Shown piece by piece: positions 2,755-51,430 of a stretch of 64,000 nt of DNA. The stretch covers positions 4,513-68,512 of the forward strand of contig JAJECA010000010.1 of assembly GCA_022822265.1 (NCBI GenBank), in the 5' to 3' direction. Both the position numbers and the translations under genes were made by a program. Numbering within the stretch: position 1 is the first letter of the stretch; each line of letters opens with the position of its first letter. A model generated the notes under the pieces. The model ran no database searches. It was not told the DNA's origin and saw only the letters and a list, made by a program, of their open reading frames with translations. The DNA comes from Acidimicrobiia bacterium (lineage in GTDB: Bacteria; Actinomycetota; Acidimicrobiia; Acidimicrobiales; Bin134).

Positions 2755-3564
2755 TCAGCTAGTTACTAGCTCGGCAGCGCCGAACACCACCGAGAACCTC
2801 ACGCACCAGATCACCACGGTGGAATAGACGTCGAGGTCGAGGTCGCGGGGGATCTCGTAATTCTGCGAACCGACATTCCCTTTGAGATCTCCGAGGTCGA
2901 CATAGACGTCGGTGAACTGGCCGACGGGAGCATCGGGGGGAGCCGCGCTCAGGTAGACGTCCAGGTCTGGGCCGTTATCGGTTCGGAAATCCTCAAACCG
3001 CAGGAACCGCTGGCCGGTGCCGTCGCCCAGCACTTCTACCTGTCCCTGCGTGGGGTGGCTGCGGCTGATGAACTCGCCCGATGCCTCCACCTGTATCTGG
3101 GGCATCTCGGGCATTGTCTCCTCTACCGGTTGCTCCTCAGGCATGCCGAGCTCTTCCATGGCCTCGTCCATCTCGGCGATGAGCTCCTCCGACAACTCGT
3201 CGCCCGGCATGGGGCCCGCGGCAGGCGCGGGGGCGGCGGTATCGGTATCGGGGGCCGGGGCTGTCTCGTCGGGCGCCGCCGCGGTTGGCTCCGCATCCGG
3301 GGTAGCAGGACCGGCCGCCGTGGGATCGGGTCCGGCTGGCTCGACAGCCGGGGTTCCTGCCACCGCGCCGCTGTCGAACACCGGGCCAGCCTCATCAACT
3401 TTGTCGTCGATGAAATAGGTCTGGAAGGCAAACCAGAAGAACACCAACCAGATCAACACACCCAGCAGGGCGGCCAACACTACGGCGATGAGCACCTTGG
3501 CTCGGGTCGGCAGCGCCTTCAACCAGCCCCACAAGCGGGATATCAGACGTTTCATACCCCTCAA
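2755..3564 (-). CDS. membrane-anchored DM13 domain protein
   Basis: N-terminal TM helix (VLIAVVLAALLGVLIWLVFFWFAF), then a Pro/Ala/Glu-rich linker. The C-terminal region GEFISRSHPTQGQVEVLGDG...FRTDNGPDLDVYL...VVIWCVRFSVVFGAA matches the DM13 pattern. Confidence 0.75.
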   Translation of the reverse strand: MRGMKRLISRLWGWLKALPTRAKVLIAVVLAALLGVLIWLVFFWFAFQTYFIDDKVDEAGPVFDSGAVAGTPAVEPAGPDPTAAGPATPDAEPTAAAPDETAPAPDTDTAAPAPAAGPMPGDELSEELIAEMDEAMEELGMPEEQPVEETMPEMPQIQVEASGEFISRSHPTQGQVEVLGDGTGQRFLRFEDFRTDNGPDLDVYLSAAPPDAPVGQFTDVYVDLGDLKGNVGSQNYEIPRDLDLDVYSTVVIWCVRFSVVFGAAELVTS

Positions 3565-3648: not shown

Positions 3649-4452
3649 ATGGGCTACGAGACGTTGATCGTGGAGCGCAAGGGCCGGGTGGGATGGCTGA
3701 TCAACAACCGGCCCGACCAGCTCAACGCCATGAACTCCAAGATGCGCGAGGAGTTCGCCGATGCGTGGCTGGAGCTGGACCGAGACCCGGAGGTGCGGGT
3801 GATAGTCCACACCGGGGAGGGGCGGGCCTTCCAGACCGGGGTGGATGTGATGGAACTGGCCACCGACGGGCAGGGCATGGAGCGCTACCGGGAGTCGGTG
3901 GAGAACTTCGACATGCACTTCACCTCTTGGCATCAGAAGGTGCGCAAGCCGGTTATCACCGCGGTGAACGGCATCTGCTGCGGGGGCGGGTTCCACTGGG
4001 TGGCCGACGCCGACATCGTGATCGCCGCTTCCGATGCCCAGTTCTTCGACCCCCACGTGTCGGTGGGCCAGGTGGTGGCGCTGGAAGCCATCGCGCTGTT
4101 GAAGAAGATGCCGGCCGAGACGGTTATGCGAATGGCGCTGATGGGGGCGCATGAGCGGATGGGCCCCCAGCGGGCCTACGAGCTGGGCATGATCAGCGAA
4201 ATAGTGGACCCGCCCGAGCGCCTGCGGGAGCGAGCCGGCGAGATAGCCGAAGCCATCGCTCGCAACTCCCCCGCGGCCATGGCCGCCACCAAGAAGGCCT
4301 TGTGGGACGCCATGGAGCACGGCCTAACCGAGGCCAGCAAAACCGGCGCATTCCACATGACCGGCATCTGGGGCCACCCCGACCAAGTAGAGGGCCCCGC
4401 CGCCTTCGCCGAAAAACGCGAACCCCAATGGGAACCCCTAGACCCTGCTTAA
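3649..4452 (+). CDS. enoyl-CoA hydratase/isomerase family protein
   Basis: MGYETLIVERKGRVGWLINNRPDQLNAMN...HTGEGRAFQTGVDV. I use the internal ATG at 3649 of track ORF 3055..4452 (alternative ATG at 3592). The upstream part of that ORF is antisense to the DM13 gene. Confidence 0.9.
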   Translation: MGYETLIVERKGRVGWLINNRPDQLNAMNSKMREEFADAWLELDRDPEVRVIVHTGEGRAFQTGVDVMELATDGQGMERYRESVENFDMHFTSWHQKVRKPVITAVNGICCGGGFHWVADADIVIAASDAQFFDPHVSVGQVVALEAIALLKKMPAETVMRMALMGAHERMGPQRAYELGMISEIVDPPERLRERAGEIAEAIARNSPAAMAATKKALWDAMEHGLTEASKTGAFHMTGIWGHPDQVEGPAAFAEKREPQWEPLDPA

Positions 4453-4518
4453 GGCAGATAGGTACCCCTGGGAACAATCGCCACCGCCGGCCCCGACCCC
4501 CAGCTTTCGAGTGTCTGT

Positions 4519-4941
4519 TCAGCGGTAGACGGTGAACGCCCGGCCCAAGCCGGGGCCATAGCGGTACACGGCGAAGTCAGCGTCGAATGAGACCGCCTCC
4601 TGGATGCCGTATCGCTCCATTACTGCCCAGCTCGTTCGGTCGACCATCGAGAACGCCTGATCGCTGAACCGCTCGCCGATCGCCAAAGAAGTCGCAATGT
4701 CTTGGGGCGTTGCCGTCAGGACATCGGCGAGATTCCGGTTCAGAATGGTCGTCACCAACTCATCGGCCGCGACACGGTGGTGGCGGCTTCTGGCAATCGC
4801 CCACGTCTCCACCAGCACATGATCGGTGGTGGCCAGCCGCCCGGCATGCTCGCTGAGCAGCGCAACGGCCCGATCATGGGACAGGTCGGTGTTCGCGCCG
4901 AGGGCGTACCACGCTCCGGTATCCACAAAGACCCGCGTCAC
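4519..4941 (-). CDS. vapC: PIN-domain ribonuclease toxin (VapC-like)
   Basis: VFVDTGAWYAL ... TTDHVLVETW ... VSFDADF gives the acidic PIN residues in the expected order. There is a 4-nt overlap with the upstream small gene. Confidence 0.85.
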   Translation of the reverse strand: MTRVFVDTGAWYALGANTDLSHDRAVALLSEHAGRLATTDHVLVETWAIARSRHHRVAADELVTTILNRNLADVLTATPQDIATSLAIGERFSDQAFSMVDRTSWAVMERYGIQEAVSFDADFAVYRYGPGLGRAFTVYR

Positions 4942-5219
4942 TCAACAGCGCTCCTGGCTCGAAGCTTCCTGTCGAACTCACCGCCGTACGCTACGTCAAT
5001 CATTTTGTGCTTGTCGCGGGCTATATCGGAAGGCCCATCCCCGCTGCCCAAGATCCCGATGAGCGGAGTGATATCGCAATGCGAGGCGCGGGCTGCGGCA
5101 TCGTCAGAGCGAATCAGCTCCCGGATGTAGGCCGACACACTCAGCCCAAGCTCATCGGCACGACGCTTGGCCACCGCCCGCAACGACGGATCCAACAAGA
5201 CATTGGTGGGCTTCGTCAT
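4938..5219 (-). CDS. vapB: ribbon-helix-helix antitoxin (VapB-like)
   Basis: 93 aa. LLDPSLRAVAKRRADELGLSVSAYIRELIR is RHH/CopG-like. It lies upstream of, and overlaps, the PIN gene. Confidence 0.75.
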   Translation of the reverse strand: MTKPTNVLLDPSLRAVAKRRADELGLSVSAYIRELIRSDDAAARASHCDITPLIGILGSGDGPSDIARDKHKMIDVAYGGEFDRKLRARSAVE

Positions 5220-5317
5220 ACCCTAATGGTAGCCGTGTTGCGCAACATGCGCAGCACAATATCCATATCAAGCGTCGGCAGACCCCTAAGCCACCGTAAC
5301 CGCTGGTGGGAGCACGA

Positions 5318-5368
5318 CCCATGGGAATGATTGTCATCACCGGATCAGCAGGCGGTATCGGCCAAGCC
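5318..5368 (+). repeat. 51-nt direct repeat, copy 1: orphan duplicate of the 5' end of the SDR gene at 11068
   Basis: cccatgggaaTgattgtCatcaccggatcagcaggcggTatcggccaagcc versus 11065-11115. 48 of 51 positions are identical. It encodes MGMIVITGSAGGIGQA and then diverges into sequence with no SDR similarity. Confidence 0.85.
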
Positions 5369-5397
5369 TTCAGTATCGCTCGAAGCGGCAACCCAGC

Positions 5398-7647
5398 TCA
5401 CGGCATGTTGAGTTGGCCGCGGCTGAAGTCGCCCCAGCATTCCAGTGTCCTGTCGAGGCGAAGCCCGCAGGTGTGGAATATGCCCCTGGACACGGCGGTG
5501 AATACTCCGGGAGGTGCGGAGTCGGTGGGGGCGTACTCGTGGAATGCAGCTGAACTGCTGCATCCGAGTATTCCGTCGTTGAGGATCCCGCACCTCCAGT
5601 GCAACCCGATGGAGTAGTCCACCAAACCAGTCAATACATCTGGGGGACTAAGGCCCTCTATATCCGTTGGCCAGCACACGATGGCCCGGTCGGTGCGGTG
5701 CGCGCAGGTGTCCACTACCCACGCTTTCACTGAGGCGAACTCGCCTTCGGGCGCATTGGCCCGGCCGTACTCGTTGTTGCCCCAGCACTCCAACGCTCCG
5801 CCGACGCGCACCCCGCATGTATGCGTGCCTCCCGCGGCAACCGAGATGAACTCGCCTCCGGGCGCCTCTATTTGGCCGAAGGCGTTGTCGCCCCAGCACA
5901 CCGCGGTCCCGCCGACCCGCAGCCCGCACGAGTGCGTGCCGCCGGCTGAAACGGCTGTGAACTCGCCCCCAGGAGCGTCTGTTTGGCCGAAGGCGTTGTC
6001 GCCCCAGCACACCGCGGTCCCGCCGACCCGCAGCCCGCATGAGTGGTAGCCGCCCGAGCATTGGACGCTGGGCCAAGGCGTCCACGTGCAGGTGTGGTCC
6101 ACACCCGCCGACACCGAGATGAACATGCCGTCCGGTGCGTCAGACTGTCCGAAGGCGTTGTCGCCCCAGCACGCCGCGGTGCGGTCGGTCCTGATGGCGC
6201 AAGTGTGATGGCCGCCCGCCGACACTGCCGACCACAGGCCCGACGCGAGATTCCCCGCCAAATTGAATGACGCTGGTACGCCGTTCCTGCCGTCCACATC
6301 AATCCAACACTCAACGGCTCCGCCCTTGCGCACTCCGCACGCCAGCCAACCCCCCACCGACACCGACTCGAACTCCCCATCCAATCGACTGACGTACTGG
6401 CGCCTCGTGTCGGGAAGGGGCCCGCATTCCACGGCACGATCAGTACGCGTCCCGCAAAATACATATTCCCCACCATTGATCTCCTCGTAGCCGCGGTCGT
6501 CTACGCCCGTTCGGGACTCGTACATCCCCCAGCACTCCACCGAGCCATCGGCGCGTAGCCCACACCAGCCGTCTCGGCTCGTAGCAACCGCCGTGAACTC
6601 CCCCCTGGACCCACCCCCGTGCCACTCCCCCACCGCGTCGCCCCAACACACCCTTGCCCCGCCAACCCGCAGCCCACACATCTGAGGCCAGCCATAGTCC
6701 ACCACGATGAACTCGCCATCAGGCCCAAGCCCGTGCCACTCCCGCACCGCGTCGCCCCAGCACACCACGGCCCCGTCTGACCGAAGCCCGCAGGTGTGAT
6801 GCCAGCTGGCGTCCACCGCCACAAACTCGCCGCCAGGCGCGTCCAACAGCCCATAACGCTGCAAGCCCCAGTACACCACCGTGCGATCAACCCGGATAGC
6901 GCACGAGTGGAACCTGCCCGCGTCCACCGCAGCAAACTCGCCACTAGGGGCGTCCAACCTCGAATAGAAGTGGTCCCCCCAGCACTCAAGCGTGTGATCG
7001 ACTCTGATCCCGCACGAGTGCGTCGCTCCTGACGCAATCGCGGTGAACTCCCCCTCCGGCACATCCAGCTGCCCAAAGGAATTCTCAAAGCCATACCAGT
7101 GCCCATCCACTTGCCAGCGTCCACCCCAACAATCCACCTCGCCCCCAACCCTGATCCCGCAGGCGAAGTCCCACCCCGCCGACACCGCCGCGAACTCGCC
7201 CTCAGGAACCTCTTCCACATCCACCTCCCACACCGACTCCCCAGGAGCAACTGGCACCGCAGTCGGAACTGCACCAGGCGAAGGCACTGACGTTGCAACC
7301 GGCGTCGACGTCACAGTCGCAGATGCTGCCTCAGTTGGCAACGGACCTGGAGTTGCAGTCGCAGACAGTGCCGCAGAAGGAATGGGGTCGCCGCCGCGTT
7401 CTACTTCCGGCGTCGGAGAAGAAACTGATTGGGTAGTAGATGCCGCAGCATCTCCTGGGTCCGATTCGGCGACTGCGGTCTCGCGGCCAAGTGAACTCGG
7501 ATCAGCGCTCTTTTGACCATCACCGCTGGAGCAAGCCACCGCGGTCAGGGCAACGACCAACACCAGACCGCCCCAACGTTCGCCCCCAGTGCTCAACTCC
7601 CTTACGGCTCCGCGGTACTCATGAAAGGTGGCAAGGTCAAGATGCAC
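5398..7647 (-). CDS. RCC1-like repeat (beta-propeller) lipoprotein
   Basis: Lipobox LTAVAC-SSG after a hydrophobic segment, then a Ser/Thr/Pro/Ala-rich linker. More than 10 repeats of the type GxxHxCGxRxxGxxxCWGxNxxGQxDAPxGEFxxVSAG follow. Its start overlaps the stop of the upstream gene by 11 nt. Confidence 0.85.
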   Translation of the reverse strand: MHLDLATFHEYRGAVRELSTGGERWGGLVLVVALTAVACSSGDGQKSADPSSLGRETAVAESDPGDAAASTTQSVSSPTPEVERGGDPIPSAALSATATPGPLPTEAASATVTSTPVATSVPSPGAVPTAVPVAPGESVWEVDVEEVPEGEFAAVSAGWDFACGIRVGGEVDCWGGRWQVDGHWYGFENSFGQLDVPEGEFTAIASGATHSCGIRVDHTLECWGDHFYSRLDAPSGEFAAVDAGRFHSCAIRVDRTVVYWGLQRYGLLDAPGGEFVAVDASWHHTCGLRSDGAVVCWGDAVREWHGLGPDGEFIVVDYGWPQMCGLRVGGARVCWGDAVGEWHGGGSRGEFTAVATSRDGWCGLRADGSVECWGMYESRTGVDDRGYEEINGGEYVFCGTRTDRAVECGPLPDTRRQYVSRLDGEFESVSVGGWLACGVRKGGAVECWIDVDGRNGVPASFNLAGNLASGLWSAVSAGGHHTCAIRTDRTAACWGDNAFGQSDAPDGMFISVSAGVDHTCTWTPWPSVQCSGGYHSCGLRVGGTAVCWGDNAFGQTDAPGGEFTAVSAGGTHSCGLRVGGTAVCWGDNAFGQIEAPGGEFISVAAGGTHTCGVRVGGALECWGNNEYGRANAPEGEFASVKAWVVDTCAHRTDRAIVCWPTDIEGLSPPDVLTGLVDYSIGLHWRCGILNDGILGCSSSAAFHEYAPTDSAPPGVFTAVSRGIFHTCGLRLDRTLECWGDFSRGQLNMP
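5871..6045 (-). repeat. near-identical intragenic tandem repeat (two adjacent RCC1 blades, period 111 nt)
   Basis: The 64-nt blocks 5871-5934 and 5982-6045 differ at one position (c/t). Confidence 0.8.
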
Positions 7648-10198
7648 CTCCTATCCATATCTGGTTGGAATGAAAGGTCTCGTCATCATCTTCACTTTCC
7701 CTGGGCCAGACTAAGAGCATCTGCACGGTTTTGGGAGTCCACACATTTGGCACGGGGATTGCTTCGACAGGCAAAAGGCGACGCCTATTGGGATTTAGTG
7801 GCGAATAGACGGATGTAAATGGTACTAGTTCTAACACGTCTACAACCTCCATATCAGAATTGAAGATAGCGCGATATACGTGCAATTTATCAATGACTTG
7901 AGCATCGATTTTACTATCCAGACTTGGGTGTGAATCAGCAGACACAATACTTGCATAAATCTCAGAATAACTGAATCTGCTGGCGTCGATTCCGAAAACA
8001 GAAGTTACAACATCTGAATACAGTCTCTCAAACTCACTCCAAAGGAGATAGTTGCGATGCTGCCAAAAGATATGGTAGTCCTTATAGTCACCAGGGTTTT
8101 CATTTTGGTACTTTTCTCTATCGTATAACTCCCTCGCGCTTTCCCTATATACATTTCCGAAGTTTCTGGACCCTTCTATTCGGAATGCACGACTGATATC
8201 GATCTGCTCTGAGAAGGAAGCGGACACCTCAAAATCAAAGCTATCTGAATCGGAGACACCAGCCCAGCCCGCTATTTCGAACGGGGCACGCTCGCCAGGC
8301 TGTACGGTCAAGGGCCAATGCCAACTAGCGCTCTTTCCATTTTCAATTCTTGGAACCACAGTAACGCTGACATCCCGAGCAAACTTGTCGGAAGAGAGAT
8401 TGTGTACCAATCCTCTAATAACACCATCGATTACTGTAACCGTTTCATCTTCCACAATAATATTGTCGATCAACTCTTGGGATGGCTCGAACGCGTCGAA
8501 TGTCCCAACATACCCCATCGGTATATTGAACACCTGGCCTGCTACTCCACTATTGCTTTGAATCGCAAAGTCCTGTACAGCCAAACCACCTGATAAATCG
8601 CACGTGCCGCGCGGAACGCCTCTCTCCTCCATGCCTGAACTCGATGCTTGAGACGTATCCTGTATGTCTGCAAACGGATCTCCTTGTCCGGCATTACCGA
8701 TCCATATCCGTGAACCATAACCCCAAGATCCATAGGGACCGTCTATTCGAACTGGTTTCGTAACCCGAATGTAAACTGGCGTAGAAAAGCTTGAGTTGTA
8801 GTTTTCAAATCGTGTTACTGGAGTCATAATGCGCCCCATGATGTTCCCATTGGAATCAATTTCTTCTACAACTGTATGAGGTATAAGTTCTCTCACATCT
8901 AGAACTACATCTTGCCGTACAATCGCCTGGTACACCTTAACGTTTTCAGCTATGTTGTCATTCGCCGAATCATAAAAATCTGGATATGATATCCCTGGGG
9001 TCTTGTTTCGAAGGCTCGGAGGTGATATTTCCGGCGTATAGTAAATGTCAGTAAAATCATACGTCCAAAAATCAGACAAGATGGGATCAAGGTTATTGCT
9101 TATTACAAAATGAGCTGGGTAAATGGATTCAAATCTAGCTCGGTGCAAAAGGCTGTAACTGCGACCACCTCGATATGTGTAATCATACCAGTCTTCACTC
9201 TCAAACAATCGATCATCGTACACCAGAAAATCATGGGATGATTGATACAAATTATAGCCTTCAGTGCGATCCGCATTCCACGAAAAAGAGCGAGAGACAT
9301 CAGGCTCGTCAGACAGGTTTGCGGTGATTGAGTGCCGTATATCTCTCCAAGATTGCTGCGCTCGTTCATATGGATCCCCCCAAGCAGATCCAGGCGGAGT
9401 ATTTTCGGCTAATTCCTTGCGCGTCCAATTTATATTGATTTCAAAGGGCGCTTGCTCACCGGGTAGCATCACCAGCGGCCAATGCCAGCTAGCATTCTTG
9501 CTTCCATCTGGTGATTCGATAGTCAACACAACGTCTCTGGCAAAGAGCTTGTCAGACTGATTGCGTAACATCCCCCGCATCACGCACTCTCTCACGGTAA
9601 ATGATTCGATCACTACTACATCCTCAGCTTGTGGCTGGGATTCTGGATCGGACAACGGCAGAGTCTCTTCGCCGACATTTTCTTCATCTGAAGGGTCGCT
9701 CTCCGGAATTGCTGGAGGCGGTGTCGAATCTTCTCTCTCTGCACTCTCCTCCGACCCATCATCGTCTGAGTTCTCCTCTGCCGTCGGAGTAGCAGAAGCC
9801 ACAGGGGTTCGATCGTCTCCTTCCTGGCGATCTGATTCGCGAGGCGCTTCTGTTTCTGCGGTTGACGAGGACGAAGTAGCAGGGGCAACAGTCGCGGTAG
9901 GAGTAGGGGCACCTGTGGGGGTAGCGGAAACACCCGTTGGTTCCGCTGTTTCGACCGTAGAGTCCTCTGCTTCAACTACCTCCGTAGCCGTCAGCGTCGC
10001 CGTGGTCGTGGCTCCTGCTGTCGATTCATCCACAGAATGGTCACCTGACTCGCTCCCGCACCCACCAGCCGCTAACGCCAACGCCAGCCCAATGCTGGCC
10101 CCAAGATGAAGCCGCCGGAACCGCCAGACCCCTCTCCCCTCGATGCATCCACCTAGCCAACAGCTCACTACATCATCCCCAATTGTGATGCGACGCAA
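7637..10198 (-). CDS. large AT-rich lipoprotein of unknown family with two internal ~300-aa modules
   Basis: 853 aa. Lipobox LALAAGGC-GSESG, then a Thr/Ala/Glu/Ser/Asp-rich linker. Two paralogous modules start with ...RGMLRNQSDKLFARDVVLTIESPDGSKNASWHWPLVMLPGEQAPFEI and ...RGLVHNLSSDKFARDVSVTVVPRIENGKSASWHWPLTVQPGERAPFEI. They end in IWIGNAG and IWIGGAS. G+C is 23/60 at 8761-8820. Confidence 0.8.
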   Translation of the reverse strand: MRRITIGDDVVSCWLGGCIEGRGVWRFRRLHLGASIGLALALAAGGCGSESGDHSVDESTAGATTTATLTATEVVEAEDSTVETAEPTGVSATPTGAPTPTATVAPATSSSSTAETEAPRESDRQEGDDRTPVASATPTAEENSDDDGSEESAEREDSTPPPAIPESDPSDEENVGEETLPLSDPESQPQAEDVVVIESFTVRECVMRGMLRNQSDKLFARDVVLTIESPDGSKNASWHWPLVMLPGEQAPFEININWTRKELAENTPPGSAWGDPYERAQQSWRDIRHSITANLSDEPDVSRSFSWNADRTEGYNLYQSSHDFLVYDDRLFESEDWYDYTYRGGRSYSLLHRARFESIYPAHFVISNNLDPILSDFWTYDFTDIYYTPEISPPSLRNKTPGISYPDFYDSANDNIAENVKVYQAIVRQDVVLDVRELIPHTVVEEIDSNGNIMGRIMTPVTRFENYNSSFSTPVYIRVTKPVRIDGPYGSWGYGSRIWIGNAGQGDPFADIQDTSQASSSGMEERGVPRGTCDLSGGLAVQDFAIQSNSGVAGQVFNIPMGYVGTFDAFEPSQELIDNIIVEDETVTVIDGVIRGLVHNLSSDKFARDVSVTVVPRIENGKSASWHWPLTVQPGERAPFEIAGWAGVSDSDSFDFEVSASFSEQIDISRAFRIEGSRNFGNVYRESARELYDREKYQNENPGDYKDYHIFWQHRNYLLWSEFERLYSDVVTSVFGIDASRFSYSEIYASIVSADSHPSLDSKIDAQVIDKLHVYRAIFNSDMEVVDVLELVPFTSVYSPLNPNRRRLLPVEAIPVPNVWTPKTVQMLLVWPRESEDDDETFHSNQIWIGGAS

Positions 10199-10325
10199 TC
10201 ATCATATGTACACAAGGTGAGCATTTGGTGTCGCCCCTCCCGCCTTCATCACCTCCCACCGGCAGGACCACGGCCCATTGGAACAATCGTCACCACAGGA
10301 TCAAATGGCAGATTCGGCTAGACGT

Positions 10326-10679
10326 TCAGTAGCGCTCAAAGCGGGCGTTGAGTTCTGACATGTCTTCGTGGTCTGTGGTGAGGATGAATGTGCCCAGGCT
10401 CTCTGCGACCACGGTGAGGTGGGCATCGACCACGTCTGAAGTTCCGGATTCTGCGAGTCTGAGGCCCACGCTCACGGACTCGTCGAGAGGGTGGACATCG
10501 AAATAGCGCAGCGAGCGCGACAAGTTTGCCTGCCTGGCCGGATCTCGCCAGACCTGGGCGAGCACCGGATGGGTGGTGTGCAGATCATTGCCACGTTCGG
10601 TCGCCCGCTTGATCAGTGCCCACAGCCGGGAGTTCAGATTCTCACTGTCGAGAATCAGCGGTCCGGCGTCAACGATCAA
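10326..10679 (-). CDS. PIN-domain toxin (VapC family-like)
   Basis: MIVDAGPLI... and ...FILTTDHEDM supply the N- and C-terminal acidic PIN residues. 117 aa. There is a 4-nt overlap with the upstream antitoxin-like gene. Confidence 0.7.
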   Translation of the reverse strand: MIVDAGPLILDSENLNSRLWALIKRATERGNDLHTTHPVLAQVWRDPARQANLSRSLRYFDVHPLDESVSVGLRLAESGTSDVVDAHLTVVAESLGTFILTTDHEDMSELNARFERY

Positions 10680-10921
10680 CGATCCACTCCCTGCCGGTCT
10701 AGAACTGCATCAGCCCATTCGAGATGCTCGGGGCTGATTGGACCCTCATCTGCCTCCCACGAAGCGATCATGTCGAGCATCGCCTGACTGCGGCGCCGGC
10801 GTTTCACCTCGGCAAGCAGAGACCGCTTGATGGCCAGCGTCTTGGTGCCGTCCAATGCCACCAGTTCGGAAAGAGCGGCCTCCATCTCCTCATCAAGGTT
10901 GATCGTTGTCTTCACTACCAT
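10676..10921 (-). CDS. VapB-type antitoxin (TTINLD... class)
   Basis: MVVKTTINLDEEMEAALSELVALDG. I use the ATG at 10921; the track ORF extends to 10945. It has the size and position expected of an antitoxin upstream of the PIN gene. Confidence 0.65.
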   Translation of the reverse strand: MVVKTTINLDEEMEAALSELVALDGTKTLAIKRSLLAEVKRRRRSQAMLDMIASWEADEGPISPEHLEWADAVLDRQGVDR

Positions 10922-11064
10922 ATAAATATGGTAATTAATCCACATTTGTACGGCAAGTTGGGATGGTTCGGTCGCAGGAACTCCTGACAGAAATCTATTC
11001 AGGCTACGAATCCAATTTATTCACAAGGAAGCTGAACCCAGTTCGACCCTGCTAATGATTAGGG

Positions 11065-11115
11065 CCCATGGGAACGATTGTTATCACCGGATCAGCAGGC
11101 GGAATCGGCCAAGCC
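11065..11115 (+). repeat. 51-nt direct repeat, copy 2 (start of the intact SDR gene)
   Basis: See copy 1 at 5318-5368. Confidence 0.85.
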
Positions 11116-11865
11116 ACTAGGGAGCGGCTCTCCCGGGACGGCCACGAGGTTATCGGGGTTGACATCCGTGACGCCGAGGTCATTGCCGATCTCTCAACTC
11201 CTGAGGGGCGCACCGAGATGATCGGCGCGGTGGCCGCCGCTACTGGGGGCCGCATCGACGGCCTGGTGGCCGGAGCGGGGATCACCGGCCCCGATCCGCA
11301 GCAGGTGGTGTCGATCAACTACTTCGGGGCAGTGGCCACCGTGGAGGGGCTGCGGCCCCTCTTGGCCCAGGGCACCGACTCCTCGGCCGTGGCCATCAGC
11401 TCCAACTCCAGTACCACGTTGGTCGCCCTGCCCGAAGGACTGGTCGACGCCTGTCTCAATGACGACGAAGCCCAAGCTCGAGAGCTGGCCGGGGCCGATC
11501 CGGGCACGGCTTATGCCACCAGCAAGCTGGCGTTGGCCCGCTGGACCCGGCGCACCGCCATCGGCGACGATTGGATCGGCTCGGGCATCCGGCTCAACGC
11601 GGTGGCCCCTGGCCTCATCGACACCCCGCTGGTGGCCGACAACATCGACATGATCATGAACCTGGGCGACGTGTACCCCATCCCCCAGAACCGCCCCGGC
11701 CGGCCTGCCGAGGTGGCCAACCTGCTCGCGTTCCTGCTCTCCCCCGACGCCAGCTTCTTCTGCGGCTCAGTGGTGTTCATGGACGGAGGCAGCGACGCCG
11801 CCCTCAACGCCGACGCCTGGCCCACCACCAACACCACCGCCGAGCGCTGGCCAGTCGGCGATTGA
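11068..11865 (+). CDS. SDR family oxidoreductase (hydroxysteroid-dehydrogenase-like)
   Basis: ITGSAGGIGQA Rossmann motif, YATSKLAL catalytic YxxxK. 265 aa. Confidence 0.9.
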   Translation: MGTIVITGSAGGIGQATRERLSRDGHEVIGVDIRDAEVIADLSTPEGRTEMIGAVAAATGGRIDGLVAGAGITGPDPQQVVSINYFGAVATVEGLRPLLAQGTDSSAVAISSNSSTTLVALPEGLVDACLNDDEAQARELAGADPGTAYATSKLALARWTRRTAIGDDWIGSGIRLNAVAPGLIDTPLVADNIDMIMNLGDVYPIPQNRPGRPAEVANLLAFLLSPDASFFCGSVVFMDGGSDAALNADAWPTTNTTAERWPVGD

Positions 11866-11890
11866 TCGCCGCCCTTTCGGGCCTCAACCC

Positions 11891-13594
11891 CTACTTGCCC
11901 CTTTGGCGTTTTTGGATGCGGGCCCATTCGTCTCTTAGGCCGACGGTGCGGTGGAACAGGTCGGGGGTTTCGGGGTCGCGGGCGAAGTAGCCGAGGCGCT
12001 CGAACTGGACGACTTGGCCGGGGGCGATGTCGGCCATGGCGGGTTCGAAGCGGGCGCCTTCAATGAGCTGGGCCGAGTTTGGGTCGAGCGAGTCCATGGG
12101 GTCGGTGCCGTCGGCGCCGGGGTGGGGGTCGGTGAACAGGCGCTCGTAGAGGATGGCCTGGCCGTCCACCGCGTGAGCGGCTGATACCCAGTGGATGGTG
12201 GCCTTGACTTTGCGGCCGTCGGGGGCCTGGCCTGAGCCGGTTTCGGGGTCGTAGGTGCAGCGCACCTCGGTCACGTTGCCGTCGGCGTCGGTGTCCACCC
12301 CGGTGCAGGTCACGAAGTAGCCCGACCGCAGCCGCACTTCCCGCCCAGGGGACAACCGGAAGAACTTGGGCGGTGGATCGAGCATGAAGTCGTCCTGCTC
12401 GATATAGAGCTCCCCCGAGAACGGAACTTGCCGGGCGCCGGCCGATGGATCCTCGGGGTTGTTGCCCGCCTCTCGCATCTCCACTTGGCCCTCGGGGTAG
12501 TTCTCAATCACCAGCCGCAGCGGGTTGAGCACCGCCATACGGCGCAGCGCCGTGGCATTGAGCTCCCGACGGACGAACGACTCCAGCAACTCCACTTCCA
12601 CGGTGCCGTCCACTCGGGCCACACCGATGTGGCGGCAGAACTCCCGGATGGCTTGGGGCGGGAAGCCCCGGCGGCGCAGTCCCCGCAAGGTGGGCATGCG
12701 GGCGTCGTCCCACCCGTCAACATGGCCCTCGTCCACCAGCTCCAACATTCGGCGCTTGGACAAAACGGCGTGGGTGACGTTCAAGCGGGCAAACTCGGTC
12801 TGGCGAGGGCGGTCGCCGGGCAGGTCGAGGTGGTCCAAGAACCAGTCGTACAGCGGGCGGTGAGCGTCGAACTCCAGGGTGCAGATGGAGTTGGTCACCC
12901 CCTCCACCGCATCGCTCTGTCCGTGGGCCCAGTCGTAGGTGGGGTAGATGCACCACTGGTCCCCGGTGCGGTGGTGGCTCGCGTGGCGGATCCGATACAG
13001 CACCGGGTCGCGCATGAGCATGTTCTCGTGGGCCATGTCGATGCGGGCCCGCAGCACCCGCTCGCCGTTGGCAAACTCGCCGGCCGCCATCCGCCGAAAC
13101 AGGTCGAGGTTTTCCTCGGGGGTGCGGTCGCGCCACGGGCTGTCGGTGCCCGCCTCGGTGAAGCTGCCCCGGTTCTCAGAGATGGCCTCGGCGTCCTGGT
13201 CATCCACATAAGCCAGCCCGGCCCGAATGAGGTCCTCAGCCCACTGGTAGAGCTGCTCGAAGTAGTCGGAGGCGTACAGGGTGCCCCGGTCGGACTGGTA
13301 GCCCAGCCAGGCGATGTCCTCCTCAATGGCGGCCACGAAATCGGCCCGCTCGGTCTCGGGGTTGGTGTCGTCGAATCGCAGGTTGCAGGTGCCGCCGAAT
13401 TCGGCGGCCAAGTCGAAGTTCAAGCAGATCGACTTGGCGTGGCCGATATGGAGGTAGCCGTTGGGCTCGGGCGGGAACCGGGTCTGCACGCGGCCGCCAT
13501 AGATGCCATCGGCGATGTCTTGGCGGATCAGGCTGCGGATGAAGTCGCTGCGCTCGCCGGGCTCGTCTCCTCCCAGGTTCCCGGCGTTGCTCAT
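11891..13594 (-). CDS. glnS: glutamine--tRNA ligase
   Basis: RFPPEPNGYLHIGHAKSICLNF (HIGH motif) followed by CNLRFDDTNPE, which is GlnRS-type. I use the ATG at 13594, which is preceded by AAGGA 8 nt upstream; the track ORF starts at 13636. Confidence 0.9.
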   Translation of the reverse strand: MSNAGNLGGDEPGERSDFIRSLIRQDIADGIYGGRVQTRFPPEPNGYLHIGHAKSICLNFDLAAEFGGTCNLRFDDTNPETERADFVAAIEEDIAWLGYQSDRGTLYASDYFEQLYQWAEDLIRAGLAYVDDQDAEAISENRGSFTEAGTDSPWRDRTPEENLDLFRRMAAGEFANGERVLRARIDMAHENMLMRDPVLYRIRHASHHRTGDQWCIYPTYDWAHGQSDAVEGVTNSICTLEFDAHRPLYDWFLDHLDLPGDRPRQTEFARLNVTHAVLSKRRMLELVDEGHVDGWDDARMPTLRGLRRRGFPPQAIREFCRHIGVARVDGTVEVELLESFVRRELNATALRRMAVLNPLRLVIENYPEGQVEMREAGNNPEDPSAGARQVPFSGELYIEQDDFMLDPPPKFFRLSPGREVRLRSGYFVTCTGVDTDADGNVTEVRCTYDPETGSGQAPDGRKVKATIHWVSAAHAVDGQAILYERLFTDPHPGADGTDPMDSLDPNSAQLIEGARFEPAMADIAPGQVVQFERLGYFARDPETPDLFHRTVGLRDEWARIQKRQRGK

Positions 13595-13665
13595 ATCCAC
13601 CATCCTTGACTGAATTTCGATTGACCGGCAACGCATTATGCGCTCGGTTGGCGCGAAACTGGGAC

Positions 13666-49642: not shown

Positions 49643-51430
49643 CTACACCGCGCCGGTGACGATTTGGGATGCCAGCGGAGTGACCGCCACTGCCAGGCGA
49701 GGGTCGTGGGAGGTCACCTCAACGACGAGGCTGCCGACCAGGATCTGCTGACCCGTTCGGACGGTTCGGGCCCCTCCTATGCGGTGGGTTGGTGGGGCGA
49801 TGATTGTGCCTATGTGCATGCGCTCTTGCAGCGATCGGATCTGGTCGCGCTGGGCCCGGGTGCCCCGGTCGGCCACTGCCAGGTCTACCGCGCCGACTCC
49901 GGCCCGGCGGAGGTCTTCCAGCAGCCGCTCGGTTGACCGGTTGGGGCCGAGCACGACCACCACAGTGTGGTGGTGGCGCCACACCTCGACTCCGGAGTCG
50001 AGCACGGTGTGGAATGGCGGGTCGGCAGTCCGCAGGGCCACCGCTGGCACCAGCAGCGCGGCGGCCAGCCCTACAGCGGCCGCGGCGCGCAGCAGGCGGC
50101 GCCGGGCCAGCCACCAGACCCCGGCGCCGATGGCCACCGCGATCAAATGGGGGGTCCGCAGTTCGCCGAGCCGGGCTGATGCCGACCAGCCGGCCACCGC
50201 CTGGATCCAGCCAATGCCCAGGTCGGTGGGCCAGTGGATGGCCTGGGCCAGCGGGCCGCCCGCCAGCCCGGCCAACAGCCCCGCCGACAGGCTCCACATC
50301 ATGATCGGCCCGGCCACCGGGGCGGCCAGCAGGTTGGCGGGCAGCGAGGCCACCGCAACACCGCCGAATGTGGCGATGAGCAACGGCGCCACGGCCAACT
50401 GCGCCGACACGGTCACCGCCAGCGCGTCGGCCAGCAGCCGAGGCCCTCGCAGGCGCTCGGCCAAACGGGGTGCCCACAGGATGATGCCCGTCGAGGCGGC
50501 CACCGACAGCCGAAACGCCACCGAGTGCACCAGCAGCGGATCAACCAGAACCAACAGGGCCACGGCCAAAGCCAGCACCCGGCGGCTGGACGCCTCCCGG
50601 CCCAACAAGGTGGCGGTGGCCGCGATGGCCGCCATCACTGAGGCCCGAAGCACTGAAGGCTCGAACCGGGTGACCAGGGCGAAGAAGGCGATGGCCCCGA
50701 GGGTGAGCACCCAGCGGCCCCGGTAGTCGAACCGCTCGATCAGGGGGCGGGCCAATATGAGAACGAAGGCCACGTTCTGTCCCGACACGGCCAGCAAGTG
50801 GGTGAGGCCCGCGGCCCGGAAGTCGTCGGACACTACCGGCGACTGGTGGCGGTCGTCGCCGTAAGAAAGCCCGGTGAACAGAGCGAGGCGGTCGCCATCC
50901 AGGGTTTGAGCGCCTCGGGCGATGGTGCGTCGCAGCCAGTTGGCCAGCCGATAGGGAGCAGCCCCTTCCCGGTAGCCGTGGACGCGGTCGATGTTCAGCC
51001 GGTTGGCAACGTGGCGGGCCGCTTGGTAGCTGGGCAGCGGCAGGATCGGGCGGATGCTTCCGGTGACGCTGATGCGGTCCCCGGCCAGTCGGTCGCCCAG
51101 GTCTCGGGCGGCGCGCCCGTAGGCCCACGCCTCATAGCGCCGTCCCTCCGCCCGCACGAACACCCGCATTCCCTCGCCCACCGGCACCGGATCGGACACC
51201 AGGGCGGCTTCGCCCTCGAAGGCTGCGGGCTCCAGCGGATCGAGGCCCGCCCAGGCCCTCGCTCCCAGCGACGAGCTGAGCAGCAGCACGCCAACTACCA
51301 ACAGCCACGGCTTGCGGACGGCCAAGGCCACTGCCGCCAGGGCTATCCCCGGAACTAGAGGCACGCCCGCCGACCACCAGGCGCCGGCCATGGCCGCCAC
51401 CGCCAGTGCCACCGCGTGGCGGTCGCTCAC
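49643..51430 (-). CDS. comEC: ComEC/Rec2 family DNA internalisation channel protein
   Basis: Polytopic membrane protein with the competence domain motif (FRAAGLTHLLAVSGQNV). 595 aa. There is a 4-nt overlap with comEA. Confidence 0.85.
   Translation of the reverse strand: MSDRHAVALAVAAMAGAWWSAGVPLVPGIALAAVALAVRKPWLLVVGVLLLSSSLGARAWAGLDPLEPAAFEGEAALVSDPVPVGEGMRVFVRAEGRRYEAWAYGRAARDLGDRLAGDRISVTGSIRPILPLPSYQAARHVANRLNIDRVHGYREGAAPYRLANWLRRTIARGAQTLDGDRLALFTGLSYGDDRHQSPVVSDDFRAAGLTHLLAVSGQNVAFVLILARPLIERFDYRGRWVLTLGAIAFFALVTRFEPSVLRASVMAAIAATATLLGREASSRRVLALAVALLVLVDPLLVHSVAFRLSVAASTGIILWAPRLAERLRGPRLLADALAVTVSAQLAVAPLLIATFGGVAVASLPANLLAAPVAGPIMMWSLSAGLLAGLAGGPLAQAIHWPTDLGIGWIQAVAGWSASARLGELRTPHLIAVAIGAGVWWLARRRLLRAAAAVGLAAALLVPAVALRTADPPFHTVLDSGVEVWRHHHTVVVVLGPNRSTERLLEDLRRAGVGAVDLAVADRGTRAQRDQIRSLQERMHIGTIIAPPTHRIGGARTVRTGQQILVGSLVVEVTSHDPRLAVAVTPLASQIVTGAV

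Follow-up and report, generated by a model that had tools for sequence, protein, structure and literature searches.

Chromosomal integrons hold arrays of cassettes rich in toxin-antitoxin (TA) pairs, together with intI, attC palindromes and a GTTRRRY core. Islands that target tRNA or tmRNA genes, and the tycheposon arrays of Prochlorococcus, are bounded by att repeats that duplicate a gene end; the element restores the gene, and serial accretion leaves partial copies. The minimal mobile elements (MMEs) of Neisseria place alternative cargo between the same core genes, are exchanged through homologous flanks, and carry no mobility genes. The orphan-immunity arrays of the Vibrio cholerae type VI secretion system (T6SS) show sequential displacement, for which homology-facilitated illegitimate recombination (HFIR) has been proposed (Kirchberger et al. 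2017, PMC5361080); rhs C-terminal displacement and orphan cdiA-CT/cdiI modules are mentioned there as related arrays (Jackson et al. 2009, as cited in PMC5361080). The locus described here shares features with each of these. It lies in a 64-kb stretch of DNA from an Acidimicrobiia bacterium (contig JAJECA010000010.1; hereafter the window, whose coordinates are used throughout), and consists of a short-chain dehydrogenase/reductase (SDR) gene and three dead copies of its start, set among accessory genes.

The tract 4465-11115, with the original SDR start at one end and the live one at the other, is probably not a single island but a layered scar at a strain-variable hotspot, made by host homologous and illegitimate recombination among strains; the probability of this reading is put at roughly 0.6. 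The type of structure, a flank-anchored hotspot with gene-end displacement scars, is already known, and the locus is a new example of it, ordinary but instructive. An earlier note on the window had instead taken 5318-11115 for an accessory segment inserted at the SDR start, with repeats at its two ends that have the geometry of attL and attR.

The direct repeat described in that note, 5318-5368 and 11065-11115, is real: the two copies agree at 48/51 positions without gaps, and a 20-mer from their core, ATCACCGGATCAGCAGGCGG, has exactly 2 occurrences in 64 kb against 0.03 expected by chance. The right copy is indeed where the SDR gene truly begins; the left one is a stub, opening a 98-codon open reading frame (ORF) from which similarity to SDR is gone after codon 16. 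The repeat family, however, has four members rather than two, the two additional copies being more decayed. The copies and the conserved genes on either side are as follows.

3670-4452, plus strand: enoyl-CoA hydratase (ECH) gene, Pfam ECH_1 at 4e-43, the conserved left flank
4432-4464: last ~20 nt of ECH and the spacer, the native copy of the duplicated junction unit
4465-4490, plus strand: c1, the original SDR start, now dead, with ATG changed to CTG and the first ~26 nt kept
5318-5368, plus strand: c2, a "fresh" dead SDR start, 48/51 identical to c4 and 49/51 to the consensus live start
10274-10324, plus strand: c3, an old decayed SDR-start stub, with ATG changed to ATT and an internal TAG
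11065-11115, plus strand: c4, the live SDR start and right repeat
11068-11865, plus strand: SDR gene, 265 aa, Pfam adh_short and adh_short_C2
11891-13636, minus strand: GlnRS gene, conserved flank on the right; in the window nothing is inserted in the 25-nt SDR-GlnRS spacer

The match of c1 to the SDR start covers 19-21 of 26 positions. In DNA sequence c2 and the orthologous SDR starts are 96% identical, and the agreement extends to synonymous positions and to the 3 nt preceding the ATG. The third copy matches c2 at 35/51 positions (P about 1e-8 at fixed position); it is orthologous to the stubs that adjoin a toxin-like gene, tox2, in the related loci L016, L017 and L058, with derived substitutions in common. 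Between the copies lie the following features.

4491-5299, minus strand: VapBC1 cassette, with VapC1 (PIN) at 4519-4941 and VapB1 at 4938-5219
5301-5310, plus strand: 10-nt scar CCGCTGGTGG, identical to SDR codons 187-190
5369-5388, minus strand: 3'-end remnant of a tox2-type toxin gene, 20 nt, encoding ..RFERY and the stop
5389-10255, minus strand: RCC1-p853 block, 4.9 kb, absent from haplotype L058
5398-7647, minus strand: RCC1-repeat lipoprotein
7637-10198, minus strand: p853, an AT-rich orphan lipoprotein of 853 aa
10326-10945, minus strand: tox2/anti2, an old resident TA-like cassette, with tox2 at 10326-10679 and anti2 at 10676-10945
10990-11033: remnant of the upstream end of a further cassette, Y, with a degenerate palindrome (..GAATCCAATTTATTCAC..)
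11034-11064, plus strand: H', a displaced ECH 3' end and spacer, immediately upstream of the live SDR

The array runs ECH, c1, VapC1-VapB1, c2, tox2 remnant, RCC1-p853, c3 and tox2-anti2, and continues with the remnant of another cassette, the ECH 3' stub, c4 with the SDR gene, and GlnRS. Each dead copy is followed, 1-3 nt past its 51-nt register, by the stop codon of a minus-strand PIN-type toxin gene or of a remnant of one: VapC1 beside c1, the 20-nt remnant beside c2, and beside c3 the intact tox2, which also ends in ..RFERY and the stop. In the c1 register only the first ~26 nt are derived from SDR, and the VapC1 stop lies ~28 nt beyond. No convincing inverted repeat, whether Xer/dif-like or attC-like, was found inside the 51-mer.

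Relatives were collected by searching the SDR protein against species-representative genomes, which gave ~35 loci (here given L-numbers) from sponge-associated Acidimicrobiia, namely Ca. Poriferisocius and its relatives; SDR identity across them is 85-97%. The native order in Ca. Poriferisocius is ECH, SDR, GlnRS, with very short spacers of about 20 and 30 nt. Of the 26 clade loci with both ECH and SDR (the window counted), 10 are empty, with ECH ending 18-24 nt before the SDR ATG, and 16 are filled, with at least seven cargo combinations. Filled sites hold tox2/anti2 alone (783 bp), Y, tox2/anti2 with Y, fn3-repeat proteins, or an AAA_16 ATPase; Y itself is a 407-aa AAA_14/DUF4143 ATPase matching the PADLOC candidate PDC-S01. 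Complete long-read chromosomes of relatives also show filled sites with stubs. Self-comparison of the relatives' SDR starts with blastn-short gave almost no extra copies, the stubs being too decayed or internally deleted, and the stubs in relatives were found by inspecting junctions directly and by fuzzy matching to the tox2 3' end.

These sites also place the boundaries. The earlier note had suggested looking in relatives for an empty site in which the VapBC pair is directly followed by the SDR gene; empty sites do exist, but in the form ECH-SDR (10 genomes), not VapBC-SDR. Window positions 4301-4490 are collinear with the empty ECH-spacer-SDR loci L002, L004, L008 and L019-21 through SDR nt 23, and c1 is therefore the original gene start. 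Since ECH adjoins SDR in the empty sites, the inserted tract is ~4491-11064 (6.6 kb) and includes VapBC. The VapBC pair that had been taken for the left flank thus lies inside the insertion, and c1 (4465-4490) marks where the insertion truly ends on the left.

L052, a sponge-metagenome scaffold in ENA, matches the window at 100% identity, and L053, a second assembly made from a different sample, repeats the architecture with all four junctions base-for-base identical (the sponge samples concerned are SAMN22237344 and SAMN22237345). Both are short-read metagenome scaffolds in which a gap of 100 Ns interrupts the RCC1 repeats once, and TGSAGGIG, a conserved motif, is encoded by the 51-mer; these are the grounds on which the array might be an assembly chimera at the repeat, or c2 a paralogous SDR remnant sharing only the Rossmann GxxxGxG. 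Either is hardly credible, given that L052 and L053 agree at the junctions and bridge each other's gaps, that the VapB1-stub-tox2 junction recurs in L058, that the long-read chromosomes have stub-bearing filled sites, and that other SDR paralogues in these loci are <31% identical in amino acids, against the 96% DNA identity of c2 to the orthologous starts. The L052 gap lies between 6036 and 6037, within the RCC1 111-nt repeats, and is silently closed in the window; that of L053 lies between 5873 and 5874, and each scaffold reads through the gap of the other. The 749-aa RCC1 ORF is probably correct, yet it depends on a collapsed-repeat short-read assembly.

The pairing of the repeats is decided by L058, a third contig from a sample shared with L053, representing a co-occurring strain. 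Its order is VapC1-VapB1-stub-tox2-anti2-SDR-GlnRS, and the RCC1 and p853 genes are missing. Because L058 is without 5389-10255 only, that block is the recent indel unit, and c2 pairs with c3 rather than with c4; the proposal that c2 and c4 are the ends of one element is not borne out. The block is flanked by an 89-nt imperfect direct repeat (5300-5388 and 10256-10344; 65/89 identical). The 18 nt by which this repeat extends c2 and c3 (5300-5317 and 10256-10273) match at 12/18 positions at fixed position, with P about 0.001, and the same extension is not significant in a free local-alignment shuffle test. Between c3 and c4 lies a layer of its own, tox2/anti2, which is older and has diverged together with the genes beside it. 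The tox2/anti2 cassette is present in L007, L011, L012, L016, L017, L022-24 and L058 at 84-92% DNA identity, and the layer is judged old because this divergence is in step with that of core genes. The junction between the stub and tox2 is orthologous across genomes (L016, L017, L058). The second copy is much fresher than the third, though the junction nucleotide with tox2 is identical, which is best explained by recombination of c2 with a live start or by copies from diverged haplotypes.

A single decayed island at 5318-11115, once with its own integrase and with c2 and c4 as attL and attR, would suit the fact that these are the best-conserved pair of repeats, that the enclosed genes are accessory (an RCC1-repeat protein, an AT-rich 853-aa protein and a small gene pair, as the earlier note said) and that p853 deviates in composition. 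It is nevertheless very improbable, and in our view already refuted by L058 and the ECH-SDR empty sites. The unit of the indel in L058 is 5389-10255, with c2 directly before tox2 there; tox2/anti2 is old and in step with its flanks; there are two further stubs, of which c1, with VapBC1, lies outside the proposed island and inside the true insertion; and a remnant of an integrase was looked for in the window and none was found.

That the window has no integrase, recombinase or transposase gene was upheld by Pfam and gene tables over the 64 kb, and the same means revealed none in the hotspot cargo of ~30 relatives. No tRNA genes or Rfam families occur near the tract or in the hotspots examined, and there is no RNA candidate for an att site. 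Left stubs end differently from one insertion to another, at about the ATG, codons 3-4, codon 8 or codon 16, and insertions have also struck at SDR codon 187, within the final 35 nt of that gene and at the GlnRS 3' end. A site-specific system is not supported, because it predicts one crossover point and a recombinase and neither is seen. Of what attL and attR imply, the repeats of the target and the empty sites are present, and a fixed crossover and a nearby recombinase are absent; the variable stub ends and the analogous scars at 3' ends speak against an attL/attR reading. The fallback of the earlier note, insertion by an element encoded elsewhere, is not favoured.

One form of that idea is that the SDR 5' end might be an attachment site for small integrase-less cassettes, moved in trans by a site-specific recombinase of the tyrosine, serine or Xer type, in an array like an integron or an IMEX (integrative mobile element exploiting Xer), with c1-c4 as hybrid att sites. 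The direct repeats with a restored gene start, the empty sites in relatives, the toxin stop codon 1-3 nt after each of three stubs, the exact same tox2 junction nucleotide at c2 and c3 despite very different decay, and the compactness of cassettes (about 0.8 kb) that recur at >1 site are all as it would have them. The arrangement remains improbable, since the stub ends vary by cargo type, since the orthology of the stub-tox2 junction across genomes points to one event and not to repeated use of a site, and since cassettes also lie at the SDR 3' end, beside unrelated target sequence. In addition, VapBC1 brought 10 nt of its previous flank, so that its ends are imprecise, the boundaries are without inverted repeats or attC-like palindromes, and no such recombinase was found within 64 kb or in about 30 related hotspots.

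The comparison with described integrase-dependent systems is correspondingly mixed. Like att-repeat islands, the locus has direct repeats of a gene end, a restored gene, a row of partial copies and empty sites; unlike them, it has no integrase in any copy, its junction is not fixed, its cassettes carry bits of previous flanks, and the target is the start of a protein-coding gene, its 3' end and the ends of its neighbours. Like integrons, it has a one-directional array of compact, mostly single-operon cassettes that include TA pairs, a recurring repeat and a fixed chromosomal point; unlike integrons, it has no intI, attC palindromes or GTTRRRY core, its repeats copy a neighbouring gene, and its cassettes have their own promoters and are transcribed away from SDR. 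An integron cassette array was accordingly rejected: the window has no tyrosine recombinase and no inverted repeat at the boundaries, where inverted repeats and attC-like palindromes were looked for and none found, and the inter-cassette repeats are copies of the SDR start. An insertion sequence or transposon was likewise rejected, there being no transposase and no terminal inverted repeats, and the duplications varying from 26 to 89 nt.

The spacer between the convergent SDR and GlnRS genes (25-35 nt) is a second variable hotspot. In relatives its cargo comprises RCC1-like, p853-like, fn3, pentapeptide-repeat and extracytoplasmic function (ECF) sigma genes, and VapBC1. In L003 and L005, VapBC1 lies downstream of SDR and is 95-96% DNA-identical to window 4504-5307. 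In L005 an old piece of the SDR 3' part, starting from codon 187, comes after it, and the alignment with the window extends to 5307. Because the scar CCGCTGGTGG equals SDR codons 187-190, the window's VapBC1 came from an L005-like position on the 3' side and kept part of its former flank. In L008, Y lies downstream of SDR; to its left are a stub of the GlnRS 3' end and part of the ECH/SDR spacer, and to its right a 35-nt SDR-3' stub. SDR 3' stubs therefore occur in L005 and L008, and a GlnRS 3' stub in L008. The same cassettes occur to either side of SDR: for VapBC1 compare the window with L003/L005, and for Y compare L001 with L008. Duplicated ends of all three flanking genes are the rule at the ECH-SDR-GlnRS locus.

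In L040, 12990-13140 holds a GlnRS-3'-like stub followed by a second tox2-like gene with the ECH/SDR spacer and a stub (..GAAGTACCATCCGGCC joined to CTCAGTAG); as this gene keeps spacer and stub, the stub travels with the cassette. Most of the hotspot cargo of L009, L010, L012, L015-L017, L019, L023, L033 and L059 consists of eukaryote-like repeat proteins (fn3, RCC1, pentapeptide); it also contains an ECF sigma factor gene with an unannotated ORF behind it. Such fn3, RCC1 and pentapeptide genes are typical host-interaction genes of sponge symbionts, here strain-variable at one locus.

Tandem duplication also occurs at the locus. The ECH/SDR spacer of L025 is a 146-nt tandem repeat, and at 9848-10000 of that locus four tandem copies of a 41-nt unit (ECH 3' end, spacer, ATGGGGA) stand directly before the SDR start, a slippage-type arrangement. 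In L040, 10673-10868 shows a ~67-nt tandem duplication inside the SDR 3' end. Together with the piece of ECH/SDR spacer on the 3' side in L008 and the cassettes on both sides of SDR, these repeats would agree with a purely intragenomic history, in which ECH-SDR-GlnRS underwent tandem duplication and unequal crossing-over, then deletions, without horizontal input. As a full account this is unlikely: it cannot supply new cargo, such as p853, whose GC content of 46-49% contrasts with 65% for the genome, or the many unrelated genes carried by different strains, and it is at odds with a tox2 that is 99.7% identical between strains otherwise at about 92%, which points to inter-strain transfer. Intragenomic duplication and deletion are probably a contributing process rather than an alternative.

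That exchange is visible in several places. Between the window and L058, tox2 is identical at 353/354 positions (99.7%), against 94-95% for anti2, about 92% for SDR and GlnRS, and 71% for the adjacent stub; the contrast of tox2 with flanks at about 92% points to a very recent exchange limited to the toxin gene. All 14 differences between L052 and L053 within 4190-12000 fall in VapB1 (4933-5094, the C-terminal half), a cluster of single-nucleotide polymorphisms suggestive of a short tract of recombination, or of antitoxin alleles that are diversifying in a single population. The stub in L058 is mosaic: over its left 29 nt it is identical to the live start, and its right part bears derived changes of the old stubs.

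Three features expected of a displacement array are found at this locus: an intact anchor, SDR, with older partial ends beyond each cargo layer (c1-c3; L005, L008); non-specific, variable joints, with cargo that carries fragments of earlier flanks (the VapBC1 scar, L008); and homologous exchange between strains (the tox2 tract, the VapB1 polymorphisms, the L058 mosaic stub). Its nearest counterparts in print are rhs C-terminal displacement and the V. cholerae T6SS orphan-immunity arrays. Like the rhs, cdiA-CT and T6SS arrays, the locus keeps its conserved gene intact as incoming modules push off older gene ends and small partner genes, its stubs are homologous to the live gene, it has no integrase, and its content varies by strain. 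Unlike those arrays, the part displaced is the 5' end of a metabolic SDR gene and not the 3' tip of a toxin gene, the stubs have no useful coding content, the cargo has no relation to the anchor gene, and both SDR ends and two neighbours show stubs. Like the Neisseria MMEs and similar hotspots, it has alternative cargo between two core genes and no mobility genes; unlike the classical replacement of flanks in MMEs, which is without duplicated gene ends, illegitimate joints have here left a stack of scars.

What the contigs show directly is the anatomy, the haplotypes that are empty or intermediate, the variability of the junctions, the lack of recombinases in the window and the hotspots, and recent tracts of recombination; from these we infer an order of events and a type of enzymology. 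New DNA would have entered beside SDR several times, the incoming or duplicated DNA supplying a replacement gene end, and the older end would have been pushed to the far side of the cargo, decaying there. In the first layer, the old tox2/anti2 cassette, with Y, would have given c3 and the ECH-3' stub H', Y being later deleted. In the second, VapBC1 would have arrived from the hotspot on the SDR 3' side with 10 nt of codons 187-190, giving c1. In the third, RCC1-p853 would have joined 20 nt inside a tox2 gene, and a second stub-tox2 junction, brought or retained, would have produced the c2/c3 pair. Each event would combine a homologous joint in conserved sequence (SDR, tox2, stubs) with an illegitimate joint at the other end, the substrate being DNA exchanged between co-occurring strains. 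Selection would keep only events that leave ECH, SDR and GlnRS intact, and because the spacers are so short, surviving insertions would require a duplicated gene end. The stubs may then act as short portable homologies for more shuffling, and the TA pairs probably persist because the loss of such pairs is selected against. The process could be HFIR with linear DNA or, equally, single-crossover integration of a circle with a gene-end fragment, or unequal chromosome exchange, which are indistinguishable by sequence alone.

The former position of Y follows from its remains: a remnant of its upstream end persists at 10990-11033, so Y once lay there and was later deleted. Y is intact between anti2 and SDR in L016, L017 and L023. 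A perfect palindrome, GTGAATACAATTTATTCAC, stands upstream of the Y gene (L001 ~3985-4003; L008 ~7942-7960) and may be an operator; a degenerate copy of it is at window 11005-11027, between anti2 and SDR, with Y gone. H' is easier to recognise in L058 and L001 (GAACCCCTCTGGACCCCGCTTAGG); judged from the window by itself it is only marginal, with 52/1000 shuffles reaching its score. The sequence gaaaatgaaaatatg upstream of SDR in filled loci was considered as a 45-nt decayed ECH end and rejected, since L008 shows it to be the right end of the Y cassette; the ECH stub is therefore only ~24-34 nt.

Several points weigh against this layered history. Its enzymology would be deduced from scars, and HFIR is rare where it has been measured (PMC5361080). 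The freshness of c2 needs an extra step: either exchange with a live SDR start or a donor haplotype that had diverged. The duplications that span the ECH-SDR and SDR-GlnRS junctions look regular enough for a dedicated mechanism to be conceivable. The recombinase scans covered the window and the hotspots, and a trans-acting recombinase or copies of the 51-mer may be encoded elsewhere. Microhomology at the illegitimate joints would be a supposition. A variant would make the ends of SDR and its neighbours reusable docking sites, through portable homology, for small cassettes that each bear a copy of the target gene end, leave as circles when stubs recombine, and enter naive genomes again with host RecA alone, or else sites of an unrecognised trans-acting recombinase; this is unlikely.

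VapBC1 is a type II VapBC module, with a PIN toxin preceded by a small overlapping antitoxin gene: VapC1 matches Pfam PIN at 5e-12, and VapB1 overlaps VapC1 by 4 nt. A metagenome search with VapC1 gave one 79% relative, at an unrelated locus without SDR stubs, and otherwise generic VapC proteins of ~50% identity. The tox2 protein is only weakly PIN-like (Pfam PIN E = 0.056, below cutoff) and anti2 has no family match; in layout, two genes overlapping by 4 nt, the pair resembles a VapBC module. NCBIfam and PADLOC made no assignment for tox2, anti2, p853, RCC1 or VapBC1.

The p853 gene has 48.8% GC, against 64.8% for the whole window, and no Pfam match; translated from the called start, the product is 843 aa long. 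The N-terminus of the protein resembles that of lipoproteins, and further on there are a low-complexity linker of acidic character and two domains that are repeated internally (..ARDV..SASWHWPL..PGE.APFEI..). A collection of 5.8 billion proteins, of which 8,000 word-sharing candidates were scored, yielded only 8 relatives at E <= 1e-10, and every placeable one comes from sponge, coral or marine Acidimicrobiia. The family is AT-rich throughout (46-49% GC against about 63-65%). Where genomic context was looked at (L016, L033, L059-L061), the relatives directly adjoin the SDR gene; the closest homologues (64-66% amino acid identity) lie immediately downstream of SDR in L059-L061 and are equally AT-rich.

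The rest of the 64-kb window is core chromosome (LepA, HrcA, DnaJ, aconitase, citrate synthase, ComEC). The ComEC-family competence protein at 49643-51430 (minus strand) fits DNA uptake as an exchange route, though ComEC is widespread. Just upstream of ECH, a DM13-domain gene at 2755-3564 (minus strand) is 67-94% identical in amino acids among relatives, against 93-98% for ECH, and has no match in some loci (L013, L020, L025); it may be a further variable spot. A literature search on the genus Ca. Poriferisocius gave only two incidental mentions.

The locus carries two warnings for the interpretation of similar sequences: a convincing attL/attR pair without an integrase can be a recombination scar, and pairing the two best-conserved repeats can give the wrong boundaries. 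It stands out for a scar stack four deep, for a hotspot with two sides, and for the combination of TA pairs, a defence candidate and eukaryote-like surface proteins as cargo in a sponge symbiont. Empty, intermediate and filled haplotypes coexist, some within one sponge sample. If the gene ends do serve as docking sites, this would be a recombinase-free form of cassette accretion, integron-like in function, that spreads TA, defence-candidate and host-interaction (fn3, RCC1, pentapeptide) genes among sponge symbionts. The types of cargo concerned (TA pairs, the PDC-S01 ATPase, RCC1, fn3 and pentapeptide proteins) are thought relevant to phage resistance and host interaction, and the tract is an unusually legible record, in which a decaying gene start dates every event, of how accessory genes are gained and reshuffled in a compact, uncultured symbiont genome without mobile-element machinery.

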